Virus record (IMG/VR): IMGVR_UViG_3300020202_000068
Span: 1-64,000 of that record
Length of the DNA stretch: 64,000 nt
Reading direction: 5' to 3' (one strand)
Origin: a virus
The position numbers and the translations under genes are program-made. Positions 3,200-64,000 of the stretch are shown here, piece by piece. The notes below the pieces were generated by a model that searched no databases, was not told where the DNA came from, and was given only the letters and a program-made list of their open reading frames with translations. Within the stretch, counting starts at the first letter, position 1. Every line of letters begins with the position of its first letter.

Positions 3200-4510
3200 A
3201 TGGTCACGGCAATCGTGGGCCAGGGTCCGCCCTTGGCCAAATCCCTGCACCCTGGCAGGCTGGTGAAGCTGCTCCAAGCCAGCAAGACCCAGGTGGGCTA
3301 CAACCACCGCCCGCCCGTCAATCGCGTCCTGCGGGTCCACAGTAAATACAGCTGGAAGGAGCAGCCCTGCGTTTACCTCCAGGATGAGCTAACCGGTACC
3401 ACCTACGGCACCACCGAGCTGGACAGCGTGTTCGCGGCGGTCAGTCGGCGCGAGAAGGCCGAATACCGGGACGAACTCACGAAGCTCTACATCTCCGGGA
3501 AACGCTCCCTGGGGGGTAATGGCTGTGGGGGACGCGGGACCGACCCGGAGGTGTTCGTGGTGAACGGGGAGGGCGAGATCATCCCCGCCTACCTGTTCCT
3601 CCCGTCCAAGGCCGCGCCGCTCTATATGAAGGGGGCCCTGGGGGACGTGAAGGCCTTCTACGACGGCTTCCAGGCTGAGTTCACGGTCGGCGTGGCTGGC
3701 TGCCACGAGAACCTCTGTCACGATGTCCGGTTGGGATTGAAGTCGATCTACGAGGCGGCTAAGAAGCTCGACCCCACAGCCAAGCTGACACATCAATGCG
3801 TCCTGGACCTGCCTGAGCACGTTTGGGCCACCACCCCCGCTGAGCAGCGAGTCTTGGGCTGCGATCCCTCCTCGAATGTCTATTTCGAGGGACCGAATCC
3901 CCGCCTGGGAACCGCCGAGGAGCTGCCTTTCCGCTTTGCGGGCTGCCACCTGCATTATGCGATCGGCAGCGATCAGTCCCTGAAGGCTAAGCAGGGGATC
4001 GTGAAGCTCCTGGATGCGATCTCGGGGGTCTGCTCAGTCAGCCTCCTGCGGGGCCTGGAAGACCCGCGTCGCCGGGCCTTCTATGGCCTGGCGGGGGAAT
4101 ACCGGCTGCCGCAGCACGGGCTGGAATGGCGGACGCTGAGTTCCGCGATTCTGATCCACCCGGTCGTTTGGCATTTGGTCTGCGATCTGTCCCGGAAGGT
4201 CGTGGCGATTGCCTTGAGCGATCAGGCCTTTATCTGGGACTGCTCCGCTGATGAGGCTCAGCAGGTCATTAACGACCTGAACGTCCCGCTGGCCGAAGAG
4301 ATCATCCACCGCAACGAGAAAGCCTTACACGCGATCTTGCTCGGCACGTATGGAGCCCAGGAGGTCATCGAGAAGTCCACCCGGCTGATCCTGGAAGGGG
4401 CGGAGAACTGCCTGCCATCGCTGGATGTGGTCGCCAACTGGCACCTCAACGAGGCCCAGTGGCCCCGCCAACCGCAAATGAGAAACACCACACTCAAGGC
4501 GAAGCCATGA
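3200..4510 (+). CDS. phiEco32-like COOH-NH2 ligase type 2 (glutamine synthetase-like fold)
   Basis: GTDPEVF, DGFQAEF, GCDP, RFAGCHLH, RRAFYGLAGEYR, GLEWRTLS motifs. Confidence 0.88.
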   Translation: MVTAIVGQGPPLAKSLHPGRLVKLLQASKTQVGYNHRPPVNRVLRVHSKYSWKEQPCVYLQDELTGTTYGTTELDSVFAAVSRREKAEYRDELTKLYISGKRSLGGNGCGGRGTDPEVFVVNGEGEIIPAYLFLPSKAAPLYMKGALGDVKAFYDGFQAEFTVGVAGCHENLCHDVRLGLKSIYEAAKKLDPTAKLTHQCVLDLPEHVWATTPAEQRVLGCDPSSNVYFEGPNPRLGTAEELPFRFAGCHLHYAIGSDQSLKAKQGIVKLLDAISGVCSVSLLRGLEDPRRRAFYGLAGEYRLPQHGLEWRTLSSAILIHPVVWHLVCDLSRKVVAIALSDQAFIWDCSADEAQQVINDLNVPLAEEIIHRNEKALHAILLGTYGAQEVIEKSTRLILEGAENCLPSLDVVANWHLNEAQWPRQPQMRNTTLKAKP

Positions 4511-5037
4511 CGGGTTACCTGCAAAATATCCTTCTTCAACCGCACCACCAAAGGAGCAATGCCGTGTCTGTTACCGCATCTATCAACCCCCTGCCGGTGT
4601 ACGTCACCGATGCAGACGTGAACCGGGTAGCACCCAAGAAAGAGGAGGATTGGGTCGTTAATTTTGGCGACCCGAACGACAGCGTTGAAGAGTTTCCGTT
4701 CTGCTGTGCCATCGGCGTCATCGGGCACGCGATCGCCACTGAAGGTGACTACGACCGAGAGATTGAGAGCCTCACGCCGCAGCACGGAGAAGCCTTCTTG
4801 AAAGCCATGAAGGAGGAGGTGGCTGGACGTTCTCGGGAAGGTCTAATCCTCTACACCGTCACCGACAACCAAGTGGTGGAGCGGGCAGGCCTGGAGGCGG
4901 TTGGCTTTCAAATCATGGCCGTCTTCAAGAACCCTAAGACCGGCAATCGGATCACGCTTTACGGTCTTTTGGTGAACCAGCCGCGTAGCCGGCCGGTCCA
5001 CCCTAAGGCCGCGAAGAAGAAGCTGAAGCGTAAATAG
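4507..5037 (+). CDS. hypothetical protein
   Basis: ATGA overlap with ligase gene. Confidence 0.65.
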   Translation: MTGYLQNILLQPHHQRSNAVSVTASINPLPVYVTDADVNRVAPKKEEDWVVNFGDPNDSVEEFPFCCAIGVIGHAIATEGDYDREIESLTPQHGEAFLKAMKEEVAGRSREGLILYTVTDNQVVERAGLEAVGFQIMAVFKNPKTGNRITLYGLLVNQPRSRPVHPKAAKKKLKRK

Positions 5038-5084
5038 TCCAGCCCTAGCTTTCGACAAAATGTAAGCGCAGGCTGCTTCTCACG

Positions 5085-5121
5085 GGCTCCGCCGGCTAAT
5101 AAGCTGGCGGGGCCTTTTTTT
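5085..5121 (+). terminator. intrinsic terminator
   Basis: 13-bp GC-rich stem GGCTCCGCCGGCT/AGCTGGCGGGGCC followed by T7. Confidence 0.85.
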
Positions 5122-5189
5122 GTTGAGTGGACGGACCAATGTTTGGTTCCTGTCACGAAGTCCCATGTTTTTCTTAGGAGGTAGGTTTC

Positions 5190-5612
5190 ATGGCTGTGAA
5201 AGCGACTATTGGTGGCGGTGGTCAGGTCGGCACGCTCTCGTTCAACGAGATCATCGGCTACACGCCGGGTCAGGGCCGGGGGGACGCGAAGAAGAACTGC
5301 TACCAGAATGTCAACAATGGCAACATTCTGGTCGTGTTCGGCGTCAACGCCCAGCTCGTCGAGTACGAGCGCCGGCCCAGCGGCAAGCGGACCAACCGCA
5401 CCGGACTGACGCGGGCCGGTATGTTCGTGATCGAGAAGAAGACGGGCAAGCTCCGTCCGGTGACGGCCGACCGCAGCCCTGATGGCAAGAAGGTTTGGGT
5501 GCCGTACTCGGGCTCGATCACCATCGGGGGTAACCCCCACGTCATCCAGCCAGGCCAGAACGCCCAGGCGGCTGGCAGCGACGAGTACGACGACGAAGAC
5601 GGCGAGGCCTAG
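5190..5612 (+). CDS. hypothetical protein, acidic C-terminus
   Basis: SD AGGAGGT, strong GC3 codon bias. Confidence 0.75.
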   Translation: MAVKATIGGGGQVGTLSFNEIIGYTPGQGRGDAKKNCYQNVNNGNILVVFGVNAQLVEYERRPSGKRTNRTGLTRAGMFVIEKKTGKLRPVTADRSPDGKKVWVPYSGSITIGGNPHVIQPGQNAQAAGSDEYDDEDGEA

Positions 5613-5628
5613 GCAATCTGGGCTAACC

Positions 5629-5670
5629 CAAAAGCGACATGACTGTGTCGCTTTTGACGTAAGTCCTTAT
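5629..5670. repeat. palindrome plus TAAGTCCTTAT element, copy 1
   Basis: CAAAAGCGACA-N6-TGTCGCTTTTG-ACGTAAGTCCTTAT; recurs at 31033 and 39333. Confidence 0.85.
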
Positions 5671-5774
5671 CCGACGTGAGTCGCGGAGGTCCGTTCACCG
5701 GCCCTGGGCAGTAGCTTAGGGCCGAGACGCGGTTTTCCCTGTCACAAAACCTAGAGGAGGAAGGAGGGGATGCT

Positions 5775-7970
5775 ATGCCCCAAAACAAACGCTTAGCGGG
5801 GGTTCTAGATACCGAACTCACCACGAAGCAAGTCGCCGATTGGCTCACCGAGCTGATCGAGAGATTCTCGAAAGCCGCCCCCAAGGGCTCCGGCGAGCGA
5901 ACCGCCAAGGACATCGTCAGCCCGCTCAAGAAGCGGGTGGAGGAGTACCTGGCCCATCGCAAGCAAGGCGACCCACATCGCACCTCAACCCACACCGACC
6001 TCTGTGAAGGAGTGCGATTCGCCCTCAACAGCTTCCGCAACATCATCAATGTAAAGTCGGTAGAGGGGCTCAACATCGAGCCCTATCAGGCCGTCGCGGA
6101 TCGGCGCTGGGAGGAAGTCGTCAATGCCCGGATCGAAGGCAAGCACTGGACGTTCCCGTGCTGCCACTGTGGCCGAGGCGGGACGGAGCTAATTGCAGAG
6201 AAGTATTTCTGCGTCCGCTGTCGGGATGTCTATACGGCCGTTTGCCGGGGGTGCGACGAGCGGTCGGATAAAGCCGACATGCGAGTCGTGACCAATGAAG
6301 ACGCGGCGGAGCTGTATTACTGCGAGGAGTGCGTCAGTGGGCTCGATACTCATGAATGCACGGCCTGTCACGTCCCTTACTTGGGGCGCGAGAACCACGG
6401 CCATCGGCACTCCGCCGAACTCAAGGCCGCTGGCATCTCCGCGTGCCGGAACTGCGCGCCTGGCTACCGGAAGCTGCACTGCGGGCACTGGTGGCCCAAC
6501 GGCGGACATCGGCAGGCGGTTGTCGTCGATACCGAGGACGACAATCGCGTCCGTGAGACCGTCATCGAGCAGGGGCAGCATGTCTGCGACAACTGCCTCG
6601 ACCGGCGACATCGGGACGATGCTTTGCCTGAGTTCTGGCGGCAGAAGGTCCCCAAGGTCAACGGCAGCCTCTTCACGGAGGTTGGCTCGCTACGGACGTT
6701 CGGGGTCGAGCTGGAGTTCTGCGAGGTCTATCAGATGCCTCGCATGAGCGACGACATTAAGAACTACTGGACCGCCAAGGAAGATGCCTCCCTGCCACGG
6801 GGCGGGGTGGAAATGGCTTCCACGATCCTCCATGGGGATGAAGGATTGCAGCGGATTCGCGAGCTATGCGAGTACGCTCATGCCCCGGAAGGCAACCCCA
6901 AGAAGAAGTGGGCCGTGGATGCCAGGAGTGGCTTTCATCTGCATGTGGGTCTGGCGACGGACAGCCAGGAGCAGGTGGCCGCGATTGCGATGGGGTATTT
7001 GCAGACGTACGAGCTGTGGCGGCTGTTTGTCGCTCCCAGCCGGACGAATAGCTGCAAGTATTGCCGCCGCAACCGGATCACCCCCGCTCAGCTCGTCGGC
7101 TATCAGCCTCGGGAGTACATCCAGAAGCTGACGGCTCTCGACGACCGGCGGGTGTGGTGCAATTGGCACTCCTATCCGGCTCGGCAGACTGTCGAGCTGC
7201 GGGTCCATCAGGGCACGAAGGTGTATGAGAAGATCGCGAATTGGGTCAAAGCCCATACGCGGTTCTGCGACTGGTGCGCCAGCCTGAAGAACCCCAAGAA
7301 GGTCTATGAGCGGCTCAAGGATTACGAGACGAAGCCGCGTGAGCTGTTTCTGATCGTGGCCCAGGAGGCCTGGAAGGATCGGGAGCTGGGTATGTGGTTC
7401 CGTAAGCGGGCAGAGGCGCTGCACGAGAAGGGCAATCGCCTCCTGTCGCATCGCAAGCTGCGGCAGAAAGGGATTGACCCGAAGGCAGTGCCGACGTTCA
7501 CCAACGGGACGCTGACCTTCAAGGGGAGAAGGCTGTTCGTGGTGGAGTACGAGCGGACAATCTACGTGATTGACCGCGAAAACATCCACGACTCGGGTGG
7601 CGTTAGATTCCTCCATCCAACCAAGGACGATTGGATCGCAAGCCCCAGTCGCCGATTTCTTACCCGAGAGGACGCCGAGAGGTGGTGCATTGAGCACGCT
7701 GATCAGAACCAAGTCCCAGTCGAGACGCTCGCGGACGAGATCGCTCGTCGCATAGCCCGGGCGAGCGAGAACCGGCGGGCACGTCCAGCGAATCGGGTTG
7801 TCATGCCGGAGTTCGCTATCAGCTCCGGGCCATGGACTCCTGATCCGCTGCCAGCGACTGTCGAGGTAACTGACGAGATCACGGCTGGCGATCGTCAGCT
7901 ATTAGATGATCTGGATGATGAGGACGAGCCAGAGGAAGAAGAGGAGTCGGTTGCGGACGACATCTTCTAA
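5775..7970 (+). CDS. amidoligase (Amidoligase_2-like) with N-terminal Zn-ribbon repeats
   Basis: RTFGVELE, EDASL, EMAS, SGFHLHVG, TVELRVHQGT motifs; multiple CxxC pairs. Confidence 0.85.
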   Translation: MPQNKRLAGVLDTELTTKQVADWLTELIERFSKAAPKGSGERTAKDIVSPLKKRVEEYLAHRKQGDPHRTSTHTDLCEGVRFALNSFRNIINVKSVEGLNIEPYQAVADRRWEEVVNARIEGKHWTFPCCHCGRGGTELIAEKYFCVRCRDVYTAVCRGCDERSDKADMRVVTNEDAAELYYCEECVSGLDTHECTACHVPYLGRENHGHRHSAELKAAGISACRNCAPGYRKLHCGHWWPNGGHRQAVVVDTEDDNRVRETVIEQGQHVCDNCLDRRHRDDALPEFWRQKVPKVNGSLFTEVGSLRTFGVELEFCEVYQMPRMSDDIKNYWTAKEDASLPRGGVEMASTILHGDEGLQRIRELCEYAHAPEGNPKKKWAVDARSGFHLHVGLATDSQEQVAAIAMGYLQTYELWRLFVAPSRTNSCKYCRRNRITPAQLVGYQPREYIQKLTALDDRRVWCNWHSYPARQTVELRVHQGTKVYEKIANWVKAHTRFCDWCASLKNPKKVYERLKDYETKPRELFLIVAQEAWKDRELGMWFRKRAEALHEKGNRLLSHRKLRQKGIDPKAVPTFTNGTLTFKGRRLFVVEYERTIYVIDRENIHDSGGVRFLHPTKDDWIASPSRRFLTREDAERWCIEHADQNQVPVETLADEIARRIARASENRRARPANRVVMPEFAISSGPWTPDPLPATVEVTDEITAGDRQLLDDLDDEDEPEEEEESVADDIF

Positions 7971-8014
7971 GCGTTAACTAACTGTCACAAACTCTTGATA
8001 AATAAGGACTTATC

Positions 8015-8245
8015 ATGGATCAATCAGATGGATTCAGGGGCCTACTGGACCGCGTGTCGGTCCATGGTCCTGAGATGTGGGAGAACGACACTGGTCCTCC
8101 TGGCTGGCACGCAGTCTCGCACGACGACCTAAGTATCGTCGCCTACTTCTTGTTTGAGGCTGACGCTTACCGCTATCGTCTGGACCTGATAAATCGGCTC
8201 CTGAACGAATTGCCTCCAGAGTTTCTGGGGGCCGGAAGTCAGTAG
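8015..8245 (+). CDS. hypothetical protein
   Basis: SD TAAGGA; overlapped by the 3' tail of the antisense HNH ORF. Confidence 0.55.
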   Translation: MDQSDGFRGLLDRVSVHGPEMWENDTGPPGWHAVSHDDLSIVAYFLFEADAYRYRLDLINRLLNELPPEFLGAGSQ

Positions 8246-8762
8246 TGCCGTCGTTCTTTTTGGAGTTGCAGGAGTGACACAGGGGCTGCCTGTTCGAGAT
8301 GCTGTTGGTGCCGCCAAGCGACACGGGGATCACATGGTCAGCGACCAGTCGATCCTTGCTGCCGCAAGCCAGACACCGATAGCCATAAACCGACAGGAGC
8401 AGCTCCCAGTCCTCTTCTGTCCAGGTTCCTCCTGCGGCGCGGAGGCGATCAACATACTGCCTCTCGTAGGCGCGTATCTTGGCCCTGTTCTTCTTGCGGT
8501 ACTCGGCCATGTAGGCTCTGGCCTTGGCCTTACCATCCTCAGAGGTTCTGTTGGCAGACTTACGTGCCTTTACGTCTGGATTGGCGTGATGCTCAGCTTG
8601 CTTTGCTCGCACCTTGTCGCCATGGGTGGCTTTATATCGCGCCCACCGGGCGGACTGACAGGCTCGGCAGTGAGGCTGCAAGCCGTCTTTAGCTGAGTGA
8701 CATTTAGCGAAATCCTCGACGAGTTTTTCGTGTTTGCAGGAGCAGCATGTTTTAGTTTCCAT
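8034..8762 (-). CDS. HNH endonuclease with N-terminal Zn finger (homing-type)
   Basis: CxxC..K....F N-terminus; CLACG...DHVIP...GG.N...N...LCHSCN. Confidence 0.85.
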   Translation of the reverse strand: METKTCCSCKHEKLVEDFAKCHSAKDGLQPHCRACQSARWARYKATHGDKVRAKQAEHHANPDVKARKSANRTSEDGKAKARAYMAEYRKKNRAKIRAYERQYVDRLRAAGGTWTEEDWELLLSVYGYRCLACGSKDRLVADHVIPVSLGGTNSISNRQPLCHSCNSKKNDGTTDFRPPETLEAIRSGADLSGPDDSGKRQPQTRSRRRYLGRRARLRASQEDQCRSPTSQDHGPTRGPVGP

Positions 8763-8768
8763 GCAGCT

Positions 8769-8796
8769 ACTGTATCATTTGCGAACTTACTGTCAA
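8769..8796 (-). promoter_or_regulatory. sigma70-like promoter of the HNH gene (leaderless)
   Basis: TTGACA-16-TACAGT with extended TG; ATG 6 nt after the -10. Confidence 0.6.
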
Positions 8797-8815
8797 GAAT
8801 AAAGGAGACCACAAA

Positions 8816-10354
8816 TTGTGCGGATTATTTGGCGGACTTGGTGCCAACATTAATGTCCATGCGGTGCGTCACCTCGCGGCTCTCAATGAGAGTCGGGGGC
8901 GTGACTCCGCTGGCTTCTTTGACCAGCATGGAGACTGGCTTAAGAAGGGTTATACCTCGATCACGGAGTGGCTCAAGGACGAAGGGCTGCGGGACAAGCT
9001 CCAGCGGATGTGCCTCACGGGGGCCGTCTGCGGGCATACCCGGGGCTCGACTCGTGGGAACCACAAGACCGAAAACGCCCATCCCTTCGCCTACGGCGAG
9101 GAGGGCAAGCAGGTAGTGCTCTCACACAACGGGGTGATCGACGCCCCGGCGAAGTACGACGTGGATTCGATGTACATGGCCGACTTGCTCGCTCAGGGCA
9201 AGCCTGGCCAGTACCAGGAGGCCTTGGGGGGTGTCTCGGGGTGGTACGTGCTGACCTGGCACGACGAGCGGACGGGTTGCATCTACTTCCTTAATTGGAC
9301 GGGCACTCTATGCTTCGCCCCGCTGGGGGACACGATCTACTACTCGTCCGCCAAGCAGCATCTCCAGCAGGTCCTGGCCCACCCTAAGATTCACGAGACG
9401 GTCTCGGGGGAGGTTTGGATGTGGACCGGCAAGAAGATGAAGCCGCTCAAGCACTTCACCGGGAAGGTGCGGACCTATACCCAGAGCAATAATTATGGCC
9501 AGCAATGGGACGACACCCGACCCTCTGGATCGGTTCTCAAGCTCCGCTCGACCGGCAAGTGGGTCGCCAACCTGCGTGGCGCTTACTTCGCGGAATTGAC
9601 CGACCAGGAGAAGTGGGAGGAGATGTACGGGAACGACCCCAACCCTTACACCTCCAATGGTAAGTGGCCCGGGTTTCAAGTGATCGAGGCGCATATCAAG
9701 AACGCGACCATCATTGACTTCGACGGCAAGCCCGTCTCCAAAAAGAAGCTGCGAAGAGGGATTCGCAGCTGGGTCGGTAACGACGACACCGAGCTGGAGG
9801 AGTCGGAGAAGCAGGGAGTGGTGGTCGTGGATAGTCCCGGCGTGGCCGATACCAAGGTTGTTACCACTGTCCAGAATGCCACCCCCGAGCAGAATGAGGC
9901 CCTCGATAAGTTCTTCTCAGACAACCAGATCGGCAAGGAGACGTGCGTGGCCTGTGAGGGAACGGGGCTGGCCACGCAAGGGAGTGAGTTACGCTGCCGG
10001 CCCTGTAACGGGACGGGCAAAATGATCGCTCACGCCCTCGTGAAGGCCGATGTCGCCAAGCGGGCGGCGGAGGCCGAAGCAGGGGACAACGTCGCCAAGG
10101 CCCTGGCCCTGCAAGAGGAGATCAATCGCAAACAGCGTGATCTTCGCTACCGGGACCGCTCCGATGCCTCGGCGGCTGCCAGAGCGGCCTTAAACGCCCA
10201 ATGGCAGAAGCTGAGGGCTAAGGGCATGGATGACGAGACGATCGGCAAGGAGCTGTGGAGGGCCGGATTCTACGAAGACATCTACGACCTGGACGAGAAA
10301 GACCTCCTCCCACTGCGGGGCTGGATGGAAAACGACGCCTTCGCCATGGACTAG
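8816..10354 (+). CDS. class II (Ntn) glutamine amidotransferase with C-terminal CxxCxGxG Zn finger
   Basis: MCGLFG, RGRDSAG, GHTR, NAHPF, HNGVI, DVDS motifs; TTG start after AAGGAG. Confidence 0.9.
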   Translation: MCGLFGGLGANINVHAVRHLAALNESRGRDSAGFFDQHGDWLKKGYTSITEWLKDEGLRDKLQRMCLTGAVCGHTRGSTRGNHKTENAHPFAYGEEGKQVVLSHNGVIDAPAKYDVDSMYMADLLAQGKPGQYQEALGGVSGWYVLTWHDERTGCIYFLNWTGTLCFAPLGDTIYYSSAKQHLQQVLAHPKIHETVSGEVWMWTGKKMKPLKHFTGKVRTYTQSNNYGQQWDDTRPSGSVLKLRSTGKWVANLRGAYFAELTDQEKWEEMYGNDPNPYTSNGKWPGFQVIEAHIKNATIIDFDGKPVSKKKLRRGIRSWVGNDDTELEESEKQGVVVVDSPGVADTKVVTTVQNATPEQNEALDKFFSDNQIGKETCVACEGTGLATQGSELRCRPCNGTGKMIAHALVKADVAKRAAEAEAGDNVAKALALQEEINRKQRDLRYRDRSDASAAARAALNAQWQKLRAKGMDDETIGKELWRAGFYEDIYDLDEKDLLPLRGWMENDAFAMD

Positions 10355-10485
10355 CACGGTGGACAACCACCCGGCCCTGGGAAACTGGGGCCGGAAACTT
10401 GTCAGATCGTGAAATGATGGCATTGACAGCCATCGTTCAGTTTTCTACATTGTCCGCGTCACACTTAATGAGGAGGTTCCTGAGG

Positions 10486-10950
10486 ATGCCCAGTGTTATG
10501 CAGATTCGCCGGATGGAGGAGTTCCGGGAATACTTTCGCCAGAAATGGGCGGGACGGGTCACGGATTGGGAGGTCGTCAAGCAGGATATGCTGGACAAGA
10601 ACCCTTGGCTCAATAAGGATCGCTGGCCCAATCTCCGCACGCAGCTGAAGAAGATCAACGATGAGTCAGTGGGTCGCCGGGAGTCGGCGGCACTCGTGCC
10701 GGCGGTGCCCGTCGCCCAGCACGAAGACAACGGCCAGGTGATGGAAATCCCCACACTAACACTCCCCCGCGAGCTGTCGGATGAGGCCCGGGAGTGCATC
10801 AACCGGCTCCTGGAGGAGAATCACCGACTCTCCACGGACATCAGCCTGAAGGAAATGGAGATGGGTGGGCAGAAGCAGCGGCTGGCTGGCCAAGAGGCCC
10901 GCGTGCGGCTGCTGAAGAAGATCGCATTCGAGGCCATTGATGCCCTGTAA
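10486..10950 (+). CDS. hypothetical coiled-coil protein
   Basis: SD AGGAGG upstream of ATG 10486. Confidence 0.65.
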   Translation: MPSVMQIRRMEEFREYFRQKWAGRVTDWEVVKQDMLDKNPWLNKDRWPNLRTQLKKINDESVGRRESAALVPAVPVAQHEDNGQVMEIPTLTLPRELSDEARECINRLLEENHRLSTDISLKEMEMGGQKQRLAGQEARVRLLKKIAFEAIDAL

Positions 10951-10966
10951 GGGAATTGGAAGGACC

Positions 10967-11060
10967 GTGCTAGTAGCTCAACGGTAGAGCGCCGCAGAAC
11001 AAGGACCGCGAAAGCGAGCACCGCCTACGGAGGTAGCTGGATCGTCACCAGCCTAGCACC
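10967..11060 (+). ncRNA. tRNA-like RNA with the anticodon loop replaced by a 29-nt insert
   Basis: acceptor GTGCTAG/CTAGCAC, D arm GCTC-AACGGTA-GAGC, T arm GCTGG-ATCGTCA-CCAGC; no 7-nt anticodon loop. Confidence 0.8.
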
Positions 11061-11062
11061 CT

Positions 11063-11233
11063 TGTCGGTGGAGAAAGGTCAACAAGTGCAACGAGGGTGG
11101 CGCTTAGGCCGTACCCAGCTGGGCACCCTCACCGAGCAGTGATCCGCGTGGAGCGACAAAATCCATTAGGTGTCGAAAAAGACACTGACCGAAGCGTCAA
11201 CCCCACCGGGTGAGCACACGCTGCCCACCGACA
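11063..11233 (+). ncRNA. multi-stem structured RNA of unknown class
   Basis: closing stem TGTCGGTGG/CCACCGACA plus at least four internal helices. Confidence 0.6.
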
Positions 11234-11241
11234 TAATACAC

Positions 11242-11310
11242 GGCAGGAGACGGGAACTGGATTATTTCACCCTTGGGTGGATGACCATGAAGAAGGGAAC
11301 GTCTCCTGCC
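11242..11310 (+). ncRNA. small structured RNA
   Basis: perfect 11-bp closing stem GGCAGGAGACG/CGTCTCCTGCC with an internal hairpin. Confidence 0.5.
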
Positions 11311-11322
11311 ACCTTATAAGGA

Positions 11323-17890: not shown

Positions 17891-19456
17891 ATGCTGGAAT
17901 TACGTGACTATCAAGTAATCGCGGTCCGTCAGGTGTTTGACGCCTGGCGGGCTGGTCATCGTTCGGTGGTGCTCGTCGCGCCAACAGGGATGGGGAAGCG
18001 GATCGTGGCCTTGTGGCTGATGCAATACGCAGCCCAGGCCCGGAGGAAGGTGCTGTTCGTGGGCAACCGCCGGCTCCTGATCAACCAGGCCCAGGTCGAT
18101 GCCGAGAAGTTCGGCCTGGATTACGGCGTGCTAATGGCCGACGCCGAGATGGGCAACGCCGGAGCCTCGAACCAGATCGCATCCATTCAGTCCCTGGAGA
18201 GCTGGTATTTCTATGAACGATTCTCCGACATTCCCACCGGTAGGGGACTGCCCCCAGCCAACTGCGTCATTATTGACGAAGGCCATCAGGATGTTGGACG
18301 ATATGGCACCCTTCTTGGGTTTTATCCCGATGCAAAAATACTCATCCTTACGGCGACACCTGCTGGCGCTGAGGGCCGGGCTCTCGTCCCGTCGCCCTAC
18401 GAAGTGATGGTCGAGCCGGTGAAGAACTCGCAGCTCATCCAGCGATTCCGCGACACCGGAGAGGGACTCCTCCCCGTGAAGGTGTTCGCCCCCAGCGAGC
18501 CGTTTCTCAAGGGAGTCTCGATTGATGGTCAGAAAGAATACAACCAAGCGAAGCTCGGCAGGGCGGTCCAAAGCTGCACCGTCGCGGCCGATGTCTTCAA
18601 AGAGTGGGAGCCGCACCAAGACCGGGCGACTGTCTGCTTTGTCCCAGGAATACCTTTCGGGCGTTCACTCGCCGGGCAATTCAATGATCGTTACGGTTCA
18701 GGGACGGCACACCTCATCGAAGCCAAGACAAAACCCCACGATCGGGAGCGGATTATTAACTCGATTAGAGACGGGGAGAGCCGGGTGCTGGTCTCGTGCG
18801 ACGTTCTACGAGAGGGGTTTGACCTGCCCCTACTGTCTCTCGGAATTGATCTACAGCCTAATGCTCAGCTCCGAACATACTGGCAAAAACTTGGACGCAT
18901 TAAGCGTCCTGAAGCAGGTCAAAGTGAAGCTATTTGGCTTGATTTCGCCGGCAACTACTGGCAGTTCCCCCACCCCGACGAAGACCCGGAGTGGCCGGTC
19001 GGCAGCGAAGAGACGACACAGGAGCTGATCCAGCGGAAGCGGAAGGAGCAGGGCGAGTCGCAGCCGATTATGTGCCCGAAGTGCTCGTACGTGCGGGCCA
19101 AAGGCCCTACCTGCCCCAACTGTGGCCACACCTCCGCGAATCCGATCCGCCGCATTCGGATGGGGGACGGCAGGCTGCAAGAGGTTCCGGCCGTGGCCCG
19201 TAAGGCCAAAGAACTGACGGCCGAGCAGCGGATGTTCAATAAATGGAAACAGAGGCTCTTTGCGGCCCTGCATTCCGGCTTGACGTATGGGCAATGTGCT
19301 GCCATCTTCAAGCGAGAGACGGGTCAGTCACCGCGTCACGGGTGGCCCGGGGTTTATCCCGCCCACGATCTATCGTGGAGCCGGAAGCCTCAACATGATC
19401 ACAGTCGTGGCAGCCTCAACGCTGCCTGCCGTCACTATCAGGAGTCCATGGAATGA
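17891..19456 (+). CDS. SF2 DEAD/DEAH-box helicase (RadD/YejH-like) with Zn ribbon
   Basis: LRDYQ, APTGMGK, IIDEGH, LTATP, EGFDLP, QKLGRIKR, CPKC..CPNCG. Confidence 0.92.
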   Translation: MLELRDYQVIAVRQVFDAWRAGHRSVVLVAPTGMGKRIVALWLMQYAAQARRKVLFVGNRRLLINQAQVDAEKFGLDYGVLMADAEMGNAGASNQIASIQSLESWYFYERFSDIPTGRGLPPANCVIIDEGHQDVGRYGTLLGFYPDAKILILTATPAGAEGRALVPSPYEVMVEPVKNSQLIQRFRDTGEGLLPVKVFAPSEPFLKGVSIDGQKEYNQAKLGRAVQSCTVAADVFKEWEPHQDRATVCFVPGIPFGRSLAGQFNDRYGSGTAHLIEAKTKPHDRERIINSIRDGESRVLVSCDVLREGFDLPLLSLGIDLQPNAQLRTYWQKLGRIKRPEAGQSEAIWLDFAGNYWQFPHPDEDPEWPVGSEETTQELIQRKRKEQGESQPIMCPKCSYVRAKGPTCPNCGHTSANPIRRIRMGDGRLQEVPAVARKAKELTAEQRMFNKWKQRLFAALHSGLTYGQCAAIFKRETGQSPRHGWPGVYPAHDLSWSRKPQHDHSRGSLNAACRHYQESME

Positions 19457-19863
19457 AGGCTGAAGAATTGACCGCTGATTTTTTGGATTGGCTCAAGGGG
19501 GTGGGCGAGAAGTCCGCCGAGTTCATCGAGCGCGAGTCCCCACTCTTGGCCCAGGAGATCGTCGCCTGGCACTTCTGGAGCAACGCCGTTGAGGCGTGCC
19601 TGGGGATTCTATTCGCTTCCGTATTCGCTGCCGCATCTGCATATGCCTTTCGGAAGTGGATGCAGATGGCCCCCATCAGCCGGGACACTCCCAATGAACA
19701 CGATGGGAAAGTGCTCGCGCTGGGCTTCGGCTGGGGAATCCTGGCCGCTATCGCCGTCCTGATTTTGGCGATTCATCTAACGGATGGCGTCTGGGGTATG
19801 GCAAAAGCCTCCTGCGCCCCGCGTCTCGTCATCATCGAAAACCTGAAAGGACTCGCGAAATGA
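19453..19863 (+). CDS. membrane protein
   Basis: two hydrophobic helices; ATGA overlap. Confidence 0.7.
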   Translation: MKAEELTADFLDWLKGVGEKSAEFIERESPLLAQEIVAWHFWSNAVEACLGILFASVFAAASAYAFRKWMQMAPISRDTPNEHDGKVLALGFGWGILAAIAVLILAIHLTDGVWGMAKASCAPRLVIIENLKGLAK

Positions 19864-20111
19864 CTAAGGAAGCTATCGACGCCATGCTCGACCAGCTGGA
19901 AACGGCCATGCGTGAGTCGGCCGAGATGATGGTCAAGCTCAAGGCCCCGTCCACCGACGGCTCGATGCGGCCATCGCAGAGCCTGCGGATGATGTCGATC
20001 TGCGTGATGTTTGGCGAGATCATTGCCAGCTCCTTGGATTCCGGGGACAGGTCGGCCATGGAAATGTACCGGCGCATGGTCCAAGAGCTAAATGAGAGGG
20101 AAGATGACTAA
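19860..20111 (+). CDS. hypothetical protein
   Basis: ATGA overlap. Confidence 0.6.
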   Translation: MTKEAIDAMLDQLETAMRESAEMMVKLKAPSTDGSMRPSQSLRMMSICVMFGEIIASSLDSGDRSAMEMYRRMVQELNEREDD

Positions 20112-20445
20112 CCAGGAACTGCGGGATAACATCCTCCGGGACATCAAAGCCGCCTACCGGGACATCAAGCGGCTCAACTGCCAGCTCAATACGCCGGCCA
20201 TGAAGCGGGTCTATCGGACAATCTGCCCGGCCAGGAAGGCGAGGGACGAGCAGAAGTCTGCCTACCGGATCGGAATCATGGAAGCAGAGGATGAGCTGCT
20301 TCTGGCCTGGGATCGACTGCCTGAGGTAGATAAGCGGCTTCCGCCCACAGCCAGACTCAAGGAGGCGATGGCCTTCGGGGCTTCGCTCACGCGGCACCCC
20401 TATCGCCGTAAATACATGAAGAACCAGCTACAGCTGACGACCTAA
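20104..20445 (+). CDS. hypothetical protein
   Basis: SD GAGGG, operon context. Confidence 0.65.
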   Translation: MTNQELRDNILRDIKAAYRDIKRLNCQLNTPAMKRVYRTICPARKARDEQKSAYRIGIMEAEDELLLAWDRLPEVDKRLPPTARLKEAMAFGASLTRHPYRRKYMKNQLQLTT

Positions 20446-20523
20446 CGGAGCCGCAGGGATCGCGGTGGCCGGCAAGGACCGTCGGCCTGGCAAGGACGCG
20501 ACCGGGCGAAGAGGCCCATTTTT
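20445..20523 (+). ncRNA. CsrB/RsmZ-like GGA-repeat RNA ending in a terminator
   Basis: ACGGA, CCGC-AGGGATC-GCGG, GGCCGGC-AAGGACC-GTCGGCC, GC-AAGGAC-GC, then GGGC/GCCC-ATTTTT. Confidence 0.65.
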
Positions 20524-20538
20524 CGTCCATCACGCGCC

Positions 20539-20567
20539 TTGACGCCAGTCACGGCCAAGTCAATAAT
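20539..20567 (+). promoter_or_regulatory. sigma70-like promoter
   Basis: TTGACG-17-AATAAT; ACTGTCAC at the predicted start site. Confidence 0.65.
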
Positions 20568-20733
20568 CCACCACTGTCACGCAGCAGCTCAGCGTAAGAG
20601 GTCCTTTTCCGGCTCGTCCGGCAGGGCCGACCGAGAATAATCTCTTAGCCTTTCTGGCCACGGGACTCCTGCTCGGTCGATCACCCTGGTGACAGGGAGG
20701 GCCTCTTACCCTGGGCTGCCCAAGGAGTCACGG

Positions 20734-21138
20734 ATGAGCCTGACATTCAGGAGCGAATCCGACCTACTGCACTATCTCACCACCTCCCCACGCGGGAAGG
20801 GCATCCTCCGCGAGGCCTGTACCGAGAAGTGGATCACTGACGAGATATTGGAGTACAACCGCACCACGCACATCCTCGTGAAGGCTTATCGGGACGGCTG
20901 GATCGAGGTCTATGGACCAAAGACTACCCGCGCTCGCATCGTCTTCCTGGGTCGCACAACGACCTTCCCCGAGTACGAAGTCACCCTTGAACGGCACCTT
21001 GATAGCCTCCTACCCACGCCGTATCGCGAAGTGCATTACCCCGGAAACAGACGGGCCATCGGCTATAGGTATAGCGGTCTTGAGAAAGACCGAGAGGTGA
21101 GGCTGCCGTGGAGCGGAGCGTTAAAATGTTCGAAGTGA
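20734..21138 (+). CDS. hypothetical protein
   Basis: SD AAGGAG. Confidence 0.7.
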   Translation: MSLTFRSESDLLHYLTTSPRGKGILREACTEKWITDEILEYNRTTHILVKAYRDGWIEVYGPKTTRARIVFLGRTTTFPEYEVTLERHLDSLLPTPYREVHYPGNRRAIGYRYSGLEKDREVRLPWSGALKCSK

Positions 21139-31032: not shown

Positions 31033-31073
31033 CAAAAGCGACATGCCGTGTCGCTTTTGACGTAAGTCCTTAT
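31033..31073. repeat. palindrome plus TAAGTCCTTAT element, copy 2
   Basis: CAAAAGCGACA-N5-TGTCGCTTTTG-ACGTAAGTCCTTAT. Confidence 0.85.
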
Positions 31074-35069: not shown

Positions 35070-35141
35070 GAGTCCTTAGCCTAGAGGAGAGGCATCCGTC
35101 TTCTAAGCGGATATACGCTGGTTCGAATCCAGCAGGACTCG
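35070..35141 (+). tRNA. tRNA-Arg(TCT)
   Basis: GAGTCCT/AGGACTC acceptor, TCCGT-CTTCTAA-GCGGA anticodon arm, GCTGG-TTCGAAT-CCAGC T arm; CCA not encoded. Confidence 0.92.
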
Positions 35142-35246
35142 CTCACCAGCCTGGAAGAATGCCGATCCGCTGTGACGGATTCGCGTGGGTGACACACGAG
35201 ACGAGGTCTTGATCCGGGAGTCCGGGGAGCCAAAGTGATGCACGCC

Positions 35247-36922: not shown

Positions 36923-37024
36923 TACGGACGGCAAGAGGGTATGGATTTACATGACACATCTTCAGCAATACAATCTGAGCAGCGTCTGTGGGTCCGGCCT
37001 CTTGCCAAGAGCCTCCACGATATT

Positions 37025-37066: not shown

Positions 37067-37323
37067 CGTGCGCTGGCTCCTTATTCGGAGGCGGTATTGG
37101 ATGCCGCCCGGCAAGGACGTGCCGGATAAACCCGCCACCAGGCGAGGTAAAGACGCCTATCGAAATCAGTCACCCATAGCCGAGAGGCGGGTGCAGGTTG
37201 GAACGCTATCGTTCTCCCGGTCATGCTGACGACTCCAGGCCAGGGCTAATAGAGATAGCGGCGGTGGAGGAATCCTAAGGCCGTTGTTAATAGAAACTTA
37301 GGACGCTAGAGCGATGCCCGGCT

Positions 37324-39152: not shown

Positions 39153-39361
39153 GCGAGCCGATAAAGTTCATGGGAGAGGTGATCATTCCCGTGGGTAGGG
39201 GGCACCTGCTCATTGAGTCCTGGACCGAGCCGGGGGAGTACCACAGCATCGACCTAGAGGAAGGCTCCTGCTCCTGTCGAGGCTGGGAATGCACCCGAGG
39301 GTGTCGTCACTTGGATGTCGCCCGCGAGCTGGCAAAAGCGACACAGCCGTGTCGCATTTGA
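39149..39361 (+). CDS. SWIM zinc-finger protein
   Basis: Y.ID.....CSC.GW.....CRH. Confidence 0.75.
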   Translation: MSEPIKFMGEVIIPVGRGHLLIESWTEPGEYHSIDLEEGSCSCRGWECTRGCRHLDVARELAKATQPCRI

Positions 39362-41904: not shown

Positions 41905-42120
41905 TGTCGTTCCTTCTATTGGCTAGTTGGCGACCATCCTGGCCGCATAACGATCAGTTATTTACCGGACAATCGTTCACTAGAAATCCTACCACAAGGC
42001 GATTCCAATGGACCTGTCGGGTGGATCGTCCGTAAAAATCCACGCCAGGACCAGGAAATGCTGGTGATCGGCCGTCAATGTGTCGTCAAAATGTCAATAC
42101 GGACAGGGAGGTGTCCCATC

Positions 42121-42318
42121 TTGGTGCTATCACGAAAAAAAGGCGAACGTCTTATTATCGGCGAGGACATCGCGATTGAGGTCGTCGAGGTCAGGGGAGA
42201 CCGCGTCAGGCTCGGCCTGGAGGCACCGGACTATGTATCCATCGTCCGGGAGGAGCTATTAGACGTGCTGCGGGAGCAGGCGCAGCGCGAGACTAGGCTG
42301 GCGAGGGCAGCCGGCTAG
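42121..42318 (+). CDS. csrA: carbon storage regulator CsrA/RsmA
   Basis: (M)LVLSRKKGERLIIGEDIAIEVVEVRGDRVRLGLEAP..V.IVREEL with the conserved R44 equivalent; TTG start after GGGAGG. Confidence 0.95.
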   Translation: MVLSRKKGERLIIGEDIAIEVVEVRGDRVRLGLEAPDYVSIVREELLDVLREQAQRETRLARAAG

Positions 42319-42657: not shown

Positions 42658-43236
42658 TTATGGCACGAATGTTACGGATGCTGTTGAGCCGGCCCCCGCA
42701 CAGTATCGCGTTGGCGTGGCAAACGGGGCGCAGTTAACCGCAGCATCGCTGAATAAGGTGAACACCTCGCCCGACCATGATGCGCACGGGGTTGTCGAGG
42801 TTCTCCATTCATAAAAGCACGTTCCCCCACCTGCGATCGAGAGCAATGCCGCTCCGCCGCTTCCGTTGCCGAGAACGCTCATTCCCGACCCCGAAAAGAC
42901 AGTTCCAGGGCAAGGAGTCGGGTCAGGTCCGCTGTCGGCCGGCGTCATGCGGTAGTTGCAGTTTGGAACGTCAAATAAATCGTCGCAGACATAAGTGGCA
43001 TTCATATTTTCGCATGCTGTGCATCCGGCGTCTGCCATTCCCGCGATCACTACTGAGTAGTAGCTCGGGAAGCAATCACAGGCTGCTACGCAGCAACCAC
43101 ACCCCGGCCACCAGCCGAATCCCGCAGCGAACACAACAAAGGAAGCCTCCAGTGACCATGTCGACAGAGCGATAGCGGTCAGGCACACGAGCCCCTTGCG
43201 GATGGTCGGTACTAGAGGGTGTTCGCGCATCAACAT
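42658..43236 (-). CDS. Cys-rich tail-tip protein (putative)
   Basis: GWWPGCGCC...CDC; many Cys. Confidence 0.6.
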   Translation of the reverse strand: MLMREHPLVPTIRKGLVCLTAIALSTWSLEASFVVFAAGFGWWPGCGCCVAACDCFPSYYSVVIAGMADAGCTACENMNATYVCDDLFDVPNCNYRMTPADSGPDPTPCPGTVFSGSGMSVLGNGSGGAALLSIAGGGTCFYEWRTSTTPCASWSGEVFTLFSDAAVNCAPFATPTRYCAGAGSTASVTFVP

Positions 43237-43865: not shown

Positions 43866-45409
43866 GGCAGCTCCTCCAGCTTAAGGGCGAACCGCTTCTC
43901 CTGGGCGGAGCGATCGAGCACGTCGTACTCACCACCTTCATAGACCCTGGTCCGGGGAGGCTTATTGATCACCCACTCCCAGGTCACTTGGGCGATATTG
44001 CCGTTCAGTGTCCCGAATACCAGGCCTGGATAAGTGATCTCGCTGGAGTACGGACTTTGGTACTTGTCGATGAAGATTTGGACGTAGGCGTCGGCTTCAG
44101 CGATGGTCTGCTCCTCTGTGCTTAGCCCGCTCTGGAGGTCATAGACCGAGAACAGCTCGGGACGCCGGAGGAGCAGGTCACCGCCATCCCCGCCAACTGT
44201 CCCGAAGCGGTAGATACCGCCCACAAACCCCTCGACGGTCTTGAGCTTATAAGCCGTAATCAGATAGAGCGTTGGCTCGGCAAAGGTCCCCGTGCTGGAG
44301 AGCTTGAAGAGTGGCGTATTAAACTCCACGATCTGCCGTTCCCTATGGAGGACGAACGGCACGAAAGATCGCGAGTTGGTGTGATTAGTGGCGATTTCCA
44401 GATAGCCCCAGCACTCCCCGACCTCGACGTAGGGCTGGAGGCTGTGCTGGACGTTGTGATAGTCGGTCTCGGAATAGAGGATGTAGTCCTGGAGAATGTA
44501 TTGGTTGATGTTCGTGATCGGGAAGGGGAAGTTCCCGACCGGCAAAGTGCCGTTCTCCTGGCCGATAATCTTGTACATCCGGTACACATCCTCGAAGGCC
44601 CGAATGCGATGCTGGGCATTGCCCGACAGGCCAGCGAATATCCAGGGGTGCTCGTAATCCCAACCACCAGCGGGTTTGATGTTGGTTTGGGAGAGCGACT
44701 TCTGCTGGTTGCTGGGATAGTCCCGACAAGCAGCCTGAAGCCTTAGCCGGCTCTGCCAGAGGCTGTCTCCGCAGATCACCACCACGCGGTTGGGGACGTT
44801 GGCCCGAGGAGCGAACTGCACCTTCGGCAGGACCTCGCCGACATCCGTGGGCGTCCCATTGCCCTGCCCCAGCCGCCAGATTTCCACCTGATTCGTGAGT
44901 GGGTTCAGCACGACCTCGCAGGCTACATAGTCACAGAGCCGCTGAAGGGCGATGTCCGCTCGCTCGTTCTGCCAATTGCAGCGGGGAAAGACCCCGCCCG
45001 GCATTTGACTCACGTCGTAGCCTGACTCGCCGATGGCATCTAAGAGCAGGGTCGCTAATTCAGCTGGTGACTTCCTGGTGATCTCGTCGATCTCGCCCGC
45101 CGCTGTCCGTCGGTTCCAGTCGCCCCCGATCGTCTTCCCCGCCCACCGCCACCGCCGGTCTAAGAGATGCACGGCCAGGATCGGGTGGCCATTATGACGC
45201 TGCCGGAGATGGGCCGATTTGATGGCCATATCCGGGAATTGCAGGGAGATTTCGTTGTAGGTCAGGGTGAGCGTACCGACTGAATCCACGACCTCTTGCG
45301 GGGTTAGGTAAAGACAGGCGACCGAGGGGGTCACGCCCCGCGCAAACGGGAAGCGGACGGCCCGGATACCGCTGAGTCCGCTATGCGTAATCCCTGATTG
45401 AATCGGCAT
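43862..45409 (-). CDS. baseplate hub/tail protein (putative)
   Basis: DRRWRW, AL..LCD...C.VV pattern; position after tail genes. Confidence 0.6.
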   Translation of the reverse strand: MPIQSGITHSGLSGIRAVRFPFARGVTPSVACLYLTPQEVVDSVGTLTLTYNEISLQFPDMAIKSAHLRQRHNGHPILAVHLLDRRWRWAGKTIGGDWNRRTAAGEIDEITRKSPAELATLLLDAIGESGYDVSQMPGGVFPRCNWQNERADIALQRLCDYVACEVVLNPLTNQVEIWRLGQGNGTPTDVGEVLPKVQFAPRANVPNRVVVICGDSLWQSRLRLQAACRDYPSNQQKSLSQTNIKPAGGWDYEHPWIFAGLSGNAQHRIRAFEDVYRMYKIIGQENGTLPVGNFPFPITNINQYILQDYILYSETDYHNVQHSLQPYVEVGECWGYLEIATNHTNSRSFVPFVLHRERQIVEFNTPLFKLSSTGTFAEPTLYLITAYKLKTVEGFVGGIYRFGTVGGDGGDLLLRRPELFSVYDLQSGLSTEEQTIAEADAYVQIFIDKYQSPYSSEITYPGLVFGTLNGNIAQVTWEWVINKPPRTRVYEGGEYDVLDRSAQEKRFALKLEELP

Positions 45410-56383: not shown

Positions 56384-56400
56384 TTAGGCGTCCTTGCCTG

Positions 56401-63867: not shown

Positions 63868-64000
63868 CGCTTTTCATCCTTGAAAAGGCCGGCGTAGGGC
63901 AGGCCGCCCAGGTCAGCGTCGTGCTGGCCCTAGGAAGGGCGTGATGCCTACTACCGAAATCTCGTCGTTCAGGCCGCCCCGCTGTGCTGCCGGTAAGCGT

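Follow-up and report, generated by a model that had tools for sequence, protein, structure and literature searches.

Does the short RNA that closes a replication-gene operon of an uncultured phage act as a sponge for CsrA, or is it an ordinary boundary between two transcription units? The question is raised by a 79-base spacer adjoining the stop codon of a small gene at 20104..20445 of the window, a stretch of 64,000 nucleotides comprising bases 1-64000 of a 77,276-bp IMG/VR virus record (59% G+C). An earlier note had proposed that repeated GGA motifs in hairpin loops, followed by a terminator, form here a CsrB/RsmZ-like sponge RNA whose middle-phase transcription titrates CsrA and releases late-gene translation. 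Our analysis points, with about even confidence, to a lineage-specific junction of two operons whose hairpins happen to resemble CsrA sites. On this reading the element would be neither a conserved sponge dedicated to CsrA nor a part of the core Csr circuit of this clade.

Position of the element between two transcription units

Between about 10.4 and 22.6 kb, the + strand is occupied by replication-type genes. Downstream of an SF2 helicase lie three small, overlapping genes without assigned function, the last of which (coding score 33) overlaps its upstream neighbours in the fashion of an operon and directly precedes the element (Table 1). Its protein matched no Pfam or PHROG family, and a search among 5.8 billion proteins returned only the protein itself. 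No promoter was found between the stop codon and the element, while the sigma-70-like promoter of the following unit begins 16 nt after the element's U-tract. Only four strong promoters of this type were identified in the 77-kb genome, and three of them head + strand units (10423, 20539 and 36946), suggesting that these units are transcribed early by the host polymerase. The middle-phase transcription assumed in the earlier proposal found no basis; the + strand units have sigma-70-like promoters. The preceding unit ends on the same plan: a 10-bp hairpin at ~10371-10394 comes before the promoter at 10423. Because a stop codon, stem-loops and a promoter with 10 of 12 consensus positions follow one another here, and the same layout recurs at the end of the preceding unit, we read the element as an operon junction.

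Table 1. Features of the element, its surroundings and the phage csrA gene (window coordinates)
Feature	Position	Strand	Details
SF2 helicase	17891-19456	+	Lies among the replication-type genes
Gene 20104..20445	20104..20445	+	113 aa; last gene of the upstream operon; stop TAA at 20443-20445
ACGGA motif	20445..20449	+	Overlaps the stop codon; no defined loop
Hairpin 1, GCCGC-AGGGAUC-GCGGU	20450..20466	+	5 bp including one G-U; -6.6 kcal/mol; loop contains CAGGGA
25-codon GTG frame	20465..20542	+	Opens at the 3' arm of hairpin 1 and terminates within the -35 box
Hairpin 2, GGCCGGC-AAGGACC-GUCGGCC	20467..20487	+	7 bp including one G-U; -11.9 kcal/mol; loop contains CAAGGA
Third CAAGGA, inside GGCAAGGACGC (GC-AAGGAC-GC)	20489..20499	+	2-bp stem; AAGGA at 20492-20496
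Terminator-like hairpin, GGGC-GAAGAG-GCCC, then A, T5	20504..20523	+	Stem 20504-20517; T5 at 20519-23; -8.5 kcal/mol
Sigma-70-like promoter, TTGACG-17-AATAAT	20539-20567	+	10/12 consensus positions; serves gene 20734-21138 onward
Leader RNA	20584-20720	+	Between promoter 20539 and RBS AAGGAG (20722-20727); ATG at 20734
Phage csrA	42112..42318	+	68 aa, TTG start; Pfam CsrA, 70 bits; PHROG 9500

The last hairpin of the element, which the earlier note took for an intrinsic terminator, does combine a hairpin with five U, but with a 4-bp stem it was not called by the terminator scan and is the weakest in a genome whose clear terminators have stems of 7-12 bp. Since it is weak compared with the phage's others, a plain terminator role is also poorly supported. 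Other terminator-like structures of the window include a partly bidirectional palindrome, GCGACAT-N3-4-GTGTCGC followed by TTTTG, at 5634-5651, 31038-31054 and 39338-39355; two of its copies have the common tail TTTTGACGTA.

The leader RNA of the downstream unit is far more structured than the GGA element. It folds at -80.6 kcal/mol (z = -3.64), a level reached by none of 200 shuffles, into a multi-branched structure with a closing stem of ~20 bp. No Rfam match was found for this leader, and no relatives were found in the genome or the related loci.

Several further features of the + strand were recorded. The genes at 3200-10354 gave COOH-NH2 ligase, amidoligase and glutamine amidotransferase family matches, a set that recalls phage clusters for DNA base hypermodification. 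A structured non-coding stretch at 10967-11313, after gene 10486-10950, held no tRNA according to ARAGORN or Rfam; the only tRNA called was tRNA-Arg(TCT) at 35070-35142.

Motifs and predicted folds

The four ANGGA motifs that had been described after the stop codon are indeed present in the sequence, at 20445, 20455, 20474 and 20492. Folding likewise bore out the structural description: AGGGA (20455-20459) and AAGGA (20474-20478) lie in the 7-nt loops of hairpins 1 and 2, and the third AAGGA sits on a 2-bp stem of -1.1 kcal/mol. The motif at the stop codon is mostly paired in the prediction when upstream mRNA is included. The other three motifs have a CARGGA core in common, and their GGAs (20457, 20476 and 20494) are spaced 19 and 18 nt apart. 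In E. coli work, 18-19 nt was reported to be the best spacing for a single CsrA dimer bridging two sites. The 11 nt that contain the third motif are identical to part of the RBS hairpin of a 1169-aa late gene, at 56386-56399. The resemblance of the element to CsrA sites, which consists in the threefold CARGGA, the presentation of two copies in predicted loops and the spacing of 18-19 nt, is supported, while the sponge interpretation as a whole is supported in part.

The exposure of these motifs depends strongly on context. The GGA of hairpin 1 is unpaired with a probability of at least 0.9 when the upstream mRNA is included, of 0.5 for the element by itself and of less when the downstream flank is added, whereas the GGA of hairpin 2 behaves conversely, being open at 0.94 in the element alone and at 0.05-0.15 with the upstream mRNA. 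The unpaired probability of a GGA can therefore swing from above 0.9 to below 0.2 with the amount of flanking RNA folded. Both hairpins appear in the centroid fold of the element; the minimum free energy (MFE) fold lies 0.3 kcal/mol from it, and the two differ in the formation of hairpin 2 and of the terminator.

The element was compared with the sponge families CsrB (RF00018), CsrC (RF00084), RsmZ (RF00166), RsmY (RF00195) and RsmX (RF02144). A scan of the whole window with Rfam 15 at gathering scores found only a tRNA, and the Csr/Rsm models gave no match in 20200-20900 at E values up to 10.

Chance expectation

The fold of the 91-nt stretch is ordinary (z = -0.40), with 67 of 200 shuffles folding as well. 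Hairpins with ANGGA in the loop number 46 on the + strand against 41.9 ± 6.8 in shuffles, and adjacent pairs of such hairpins occur twice against 0.97 ± 0.98. By chance, a strand should hold 0.6 groups of four ANGGA within 55 nt, a figure that falls to 0.03 when at least two are required to lie in loops. Three CARGGA within 45 nt, a criterion picked after seeing the data, occurred in 0.8% of shuffles, and the element is the sole case in the three related genomes (the present phage, G000, and its relatives G001 and G002). Under a looser rule of three ANGGA with two in loops, 3 cases were counted in the ~744 kb of strand examined in the clade against ~1.7 expected, the latter being the shuffle rate scaled to that length. 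Overall, a comparable cluster arises by chance in 1-6% of shuffled genomes. The cluster is unusual within one genome and not compelling, and its above-chance status is borderline.

Some related signals were discarded. Counting a GGA in any possible hairpin loop proved useless as a criterion, with 435 per strand and 142 neighbouring pairs, and the other GGA-rich stretches checked (10355-11322 and 73380-73660 in G000, 45060-45270 in G002) are coding. The excess of CAAGGAC and GGCAAGGAC is mostly due to Lys-Asp and Gly-Lys-Asp codons. A separate group of four GGA in 40 nt was noted at 37087-37126 (+), in the long gap before gene 37409 and ~130 nt beyond the promoter at 36946-36974; one of its parts is the hairpin CCGGCA-AGGACG-TGCCGG (37108-37125).

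Conservation

The relatives G001 and G002, with ~60% helicase identity, both carry csrA. The genes at 19453-20445 and the spacer 20446-20733 had no counterpart in 24 related loci or the two complete relatives; gene 20734 had a single weak match among relatives (in L012), and in relatives the helicase is connected to the homologue of 21202 through other genes. Conservation of the GGA loops, by which the earlier note had proposed to judge the sponge, went against it, as relatives that bear csrA and hexaloops have neither the element nor the three genes before it. Judged from its absence from all relatives found, the segment 19453-20733 is a variable, shuffling region.

No comparable GGA cluster was found elsewhere in the relatives' sequences. 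Searched with blastn and nhmmer against the remaining genome and every related locus, 20440-20740 gave nothing beyond 12-17-mers, and no exact 28-mer of the element was found in viral contigs. Close relatives of gene 20104-20445, of gene 20734-21138 or of the helicase, the last used as a single sequence, were likewise not found among viral contigs, and a phage DNA search gave no match. Among genome contigs there was one hit, of 72 kb; it had been binned with a Peribacteria MAG but is probably a phage contig. The helicase of G002 (L003/L015, 6001-8538) has 851 aa, with a ~290-aa insertion splitting the match, and intein or homing-endonuclease Pfam domains occur in this helicase of other relatives.

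Phage CsrA and hexaloop ribosome-binding sites

The csrA gene is kept in both relatives (L025 and L026). In the present phage it is the lone + strand gene within the - strand virion block, where the genes for the major head protein and for a minor tail protein are also found. Its own RBS, GGGAGG, lies in the loop of a GGACA/UGUCC hairpin and is preceded by ACGGA.

On the - strand, 34 hairpins have an exact ANGGAN hexaloop (19.1 ± 4.3 in shuffles), and in many of them the 3' end falls 0-5 nt ahead of a large gene's start codon. Among genes with ANGGAN 3-13 nt before the start, we counted those in which a stem of at least 3 bp flanks the motif, for which the null expectation is 5-9%. Such a stem is present in 13/22 of these genes on the virion strand and 2/29 on the other strand in G000, in 7/11 and 2/25 in G001, and in 10/14 and 2/11 in G002. 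The region that carries them extends over 22950-63887 (-) of the window, L027-L029 of G001 and L030-L033 of G002, with stems of 3-6 bp; the stems vary between genomes and the loops are constant. An example is CTTTTC-AAGGAT-GAAAAG at 63870-63887, before the major head gene.

Past the end of the window, two adjacent hexaloops (GACC-AAGGAC-GGTT and GCCGGC-AGGGAC-GCCGGC) were observed at 64144-64178 (-) of G000, towards the 3' end of the coding sequence that precedes the major head gene. The pair is conserved at 42816-42850 of G002 (L032), where one stem pair is changed on both sides, from C-G to G-C; one of the two changes is Asp to Glu and the other is silent.

The phage has no gene for a protein antagonist of the FliW type. 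Given the phage csrA, the hexaloop RBS of the virion strand and the lack of FliW, it is plausible that translation of virion genes is under Csr-type control in this clade, a scheme in which an antagonist would have its place. In a 2020 survey, csrA was reported in 30 of 2517 phage genomes; its role was left open and no phage sponge was mentioned (PMC7366521).

Weighing the explanations

A CsrB/RsmZ-like sponge in the full sense lacks support, given the missing family match, the two stable GGA loops, the marginal terminator, the random-grade fold and the lack of conservation. A smaller, trans-acting decoy would be an early-operon 3' end whose three to four candidate sites titrate host or phage CsrA, freeing the hexaloop-locked virion RBS. 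The csrA gene carried by the phage and kept by its relatives, the restriction of ANGGAN-hexaloop RBS to the virion-gene strand in three genomes and the missing FliW-type antagonist all argue for such an RNA, as does the cluster of CARGGA itself, the only one of its kind in these genomes. We nevertheless consider the decoy unlikely. Its two stable loops give a capacity of about two dimers against at least 13 target sites on abundant late mRNAs, and it is absent from relatives having the same circuit. It also has no promoter of its own, a weak terminator, a fold that is not robust and no Rfam match, and precedent for phage-borne CsrA sponges is not known, the 2020 survey of phage csrA dealing with genes only (PMC7366521). 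Slightly less likely still is the more specific proposal of a mini-decoy in which three bridging-spaced CARGGA in the 3' UTR of an early transcript time the production of late proteins, and which would be the first virus-borne CsrA sponge. If the decoy were true, the virus would run a full Csr-type circuit of its own, comprising regulator, targets and antagonist RNA. It would then explain the presence of csrA in ~1% of phages, a question left open in the literature (PMC7366521).

As unlikely as the trans-acting decoy is a cis-acting site, at which CsrA binding would shift the RNA between two near-isoenergetic folds, with or without the GGGC/GCCC stem, and so fine-tune termination, read-through or mRNA stability in the early operon. 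The MFE and centroid folds differ in just these parts, the candidate sites adjoin a weak terminator, and control of termination and mRNA stability by CsrA has E. coli examples in pgaA and flhDC. Alternative folds are, however, usual in G+C-rich RNA, as the z-score of the element illustrates, the element is not conserved, and read-through control would add little, as the downstream unit is served by a strong promoter already.

The statement that no open reading frame follows the motifs holds for normal genes but overlooks the 25-codon GTG frame listed in Table 1, of which hairpin 1 could be the RBS hairpin, the GGC-AAG-GAC repeats then being Gly-Lys-Asp codons. AGGGA lies 5 nt before the GTG, the start adjoins the 3' arm as in the phage's hairpin RBS, both copies of GGCAAGGAC are in frame, and the codon score (-0.12) exceeds 98% of out-of-frame windows. 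The same score falls within the lowest 5% of true in-frame windows, though, and the frame crosses the U-tract to end inside the -35 box; hairpin RBS are rare on the + strand and 25-codon open frames are frequent at this G+C content, which leaves such a micro-gene very unlikely. Leftover RBS hairpins are an unlikely origin of the element as well, because + strand genes seldom use hairpin sites. Least likely of all is a DNA operator, with the direct repeat of GGCAAGGAC (20471 and 20489) as the binding site of a transcription factor that controls promoter 20539. It is favoured by two exact 9-mers 18 bp apart, placed 50-68 bp upstream of the -35 box, and by the 9 occurrences of the 9-mer against 0.95 expected in shuffles. 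Most other copies, however, are in-frame Gly-Lys-Asp codons or RBS, none of the other promoters is accompanied by a copy in the corresponding place, and a spacing of 18 bp is off helical phase.

The operon junction accounts best for the whole. Under it, two G+C-rich stem-loops and a weak hairpin plus U5 would close an early-type + strand unit just ahead of the next unit's promoter. The probable role of the hairpins is to slow or stop transcription arriving from upstream, or else to shield the transcript at its 3' end; the hairpin loops would read CARGGA by happenstance, and CsrA may dock there in a phage that makes it. The scarcity of such promoters in the genome, most of them heading + strand units, the absence of the segment from all relatives found, the fold no better than shuffles, the context-dependent loop exposure and the lack of an Rfam sponge match are all consistent with a junction, as are the csrA/hexaloop relatives without a comparable cluster and a clade count near expectation. 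Against it stand the rarity of the cluster in this genome (0.03 per strand, and 0.008 for the post hoc rule of three CARGGA) and a spacing that coincides with the distance reported as best for dimer bridging. As far as present evidence goes, the element is an ordinary junction that is not conserved, and the solid and more interesting result is its context, the virion-specific hexaloop RBS together with a conserved phage csrA.

Comparison with known systems

The element shares with the Csr/Rsm sponges a density of ~5 ANGGA per 100 nt, some of them looped, a dimer-bridging spacing and a hairpin plus U-tract at its end. It differs from them in number, with four GGA, two in stable loops (hairpins of at least 4 bp), against ~5-22 in the families, and in having no covariance-model match, no promoter of its own, no conservation with csrA and a marginal terminator. 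By size, the nearest known RNAs are McaS, a small CsrA-binding sRNA, and RsmW, which is reportedly derived from a 3' UTR.

High-affinity CsrA/RsmE sites of the hcnA and glgC type present A(N)GGA in a short hairpin loop, and the SELEX consensus is RUACARGGAUGU. The element resembles them in its three CARGGA, its C-G closing pairs, its two presenting loops, with an exposure that depends on context, and its intervals of 19 and 18 nt, which fall inside the ~10-63 nt within which a second site allows dimer bridging. Its loops are of 7 nt (ANGGANC), however, as opposed to the ANGGAN hexaloop of the phage's late RBS. The sites overlap no RBS or regulated feature; no start codon of a normal gene follows the element, and the next gene, at 20734, lies behind its own promoter.

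With Rho-independent terminators the element has in common a G+C stem followed by five U, but the stem, at only 4 bp, is below the scanner's rule of a G+C-rich stem of at least 5 bp.

In the hyperplastic regions of T4-type phages, PeSL cassettes pair a stem-loop terminator with a strong sigma-70-like early promoter (Arbiol et al. 2010, PMC2839356). The element differs from them in being neither repeated nor conserved in sequence, having no second copy in the genome or relatives; its region is G+C-rich and not AT-rich, and its stem-loops are set 50-90 nt ahead of the -35 box and not within the promoter. What it shares with PeSL is the order of stop codon, stem-loops, strong promoter and small genes, set in a segment that varies between phages.
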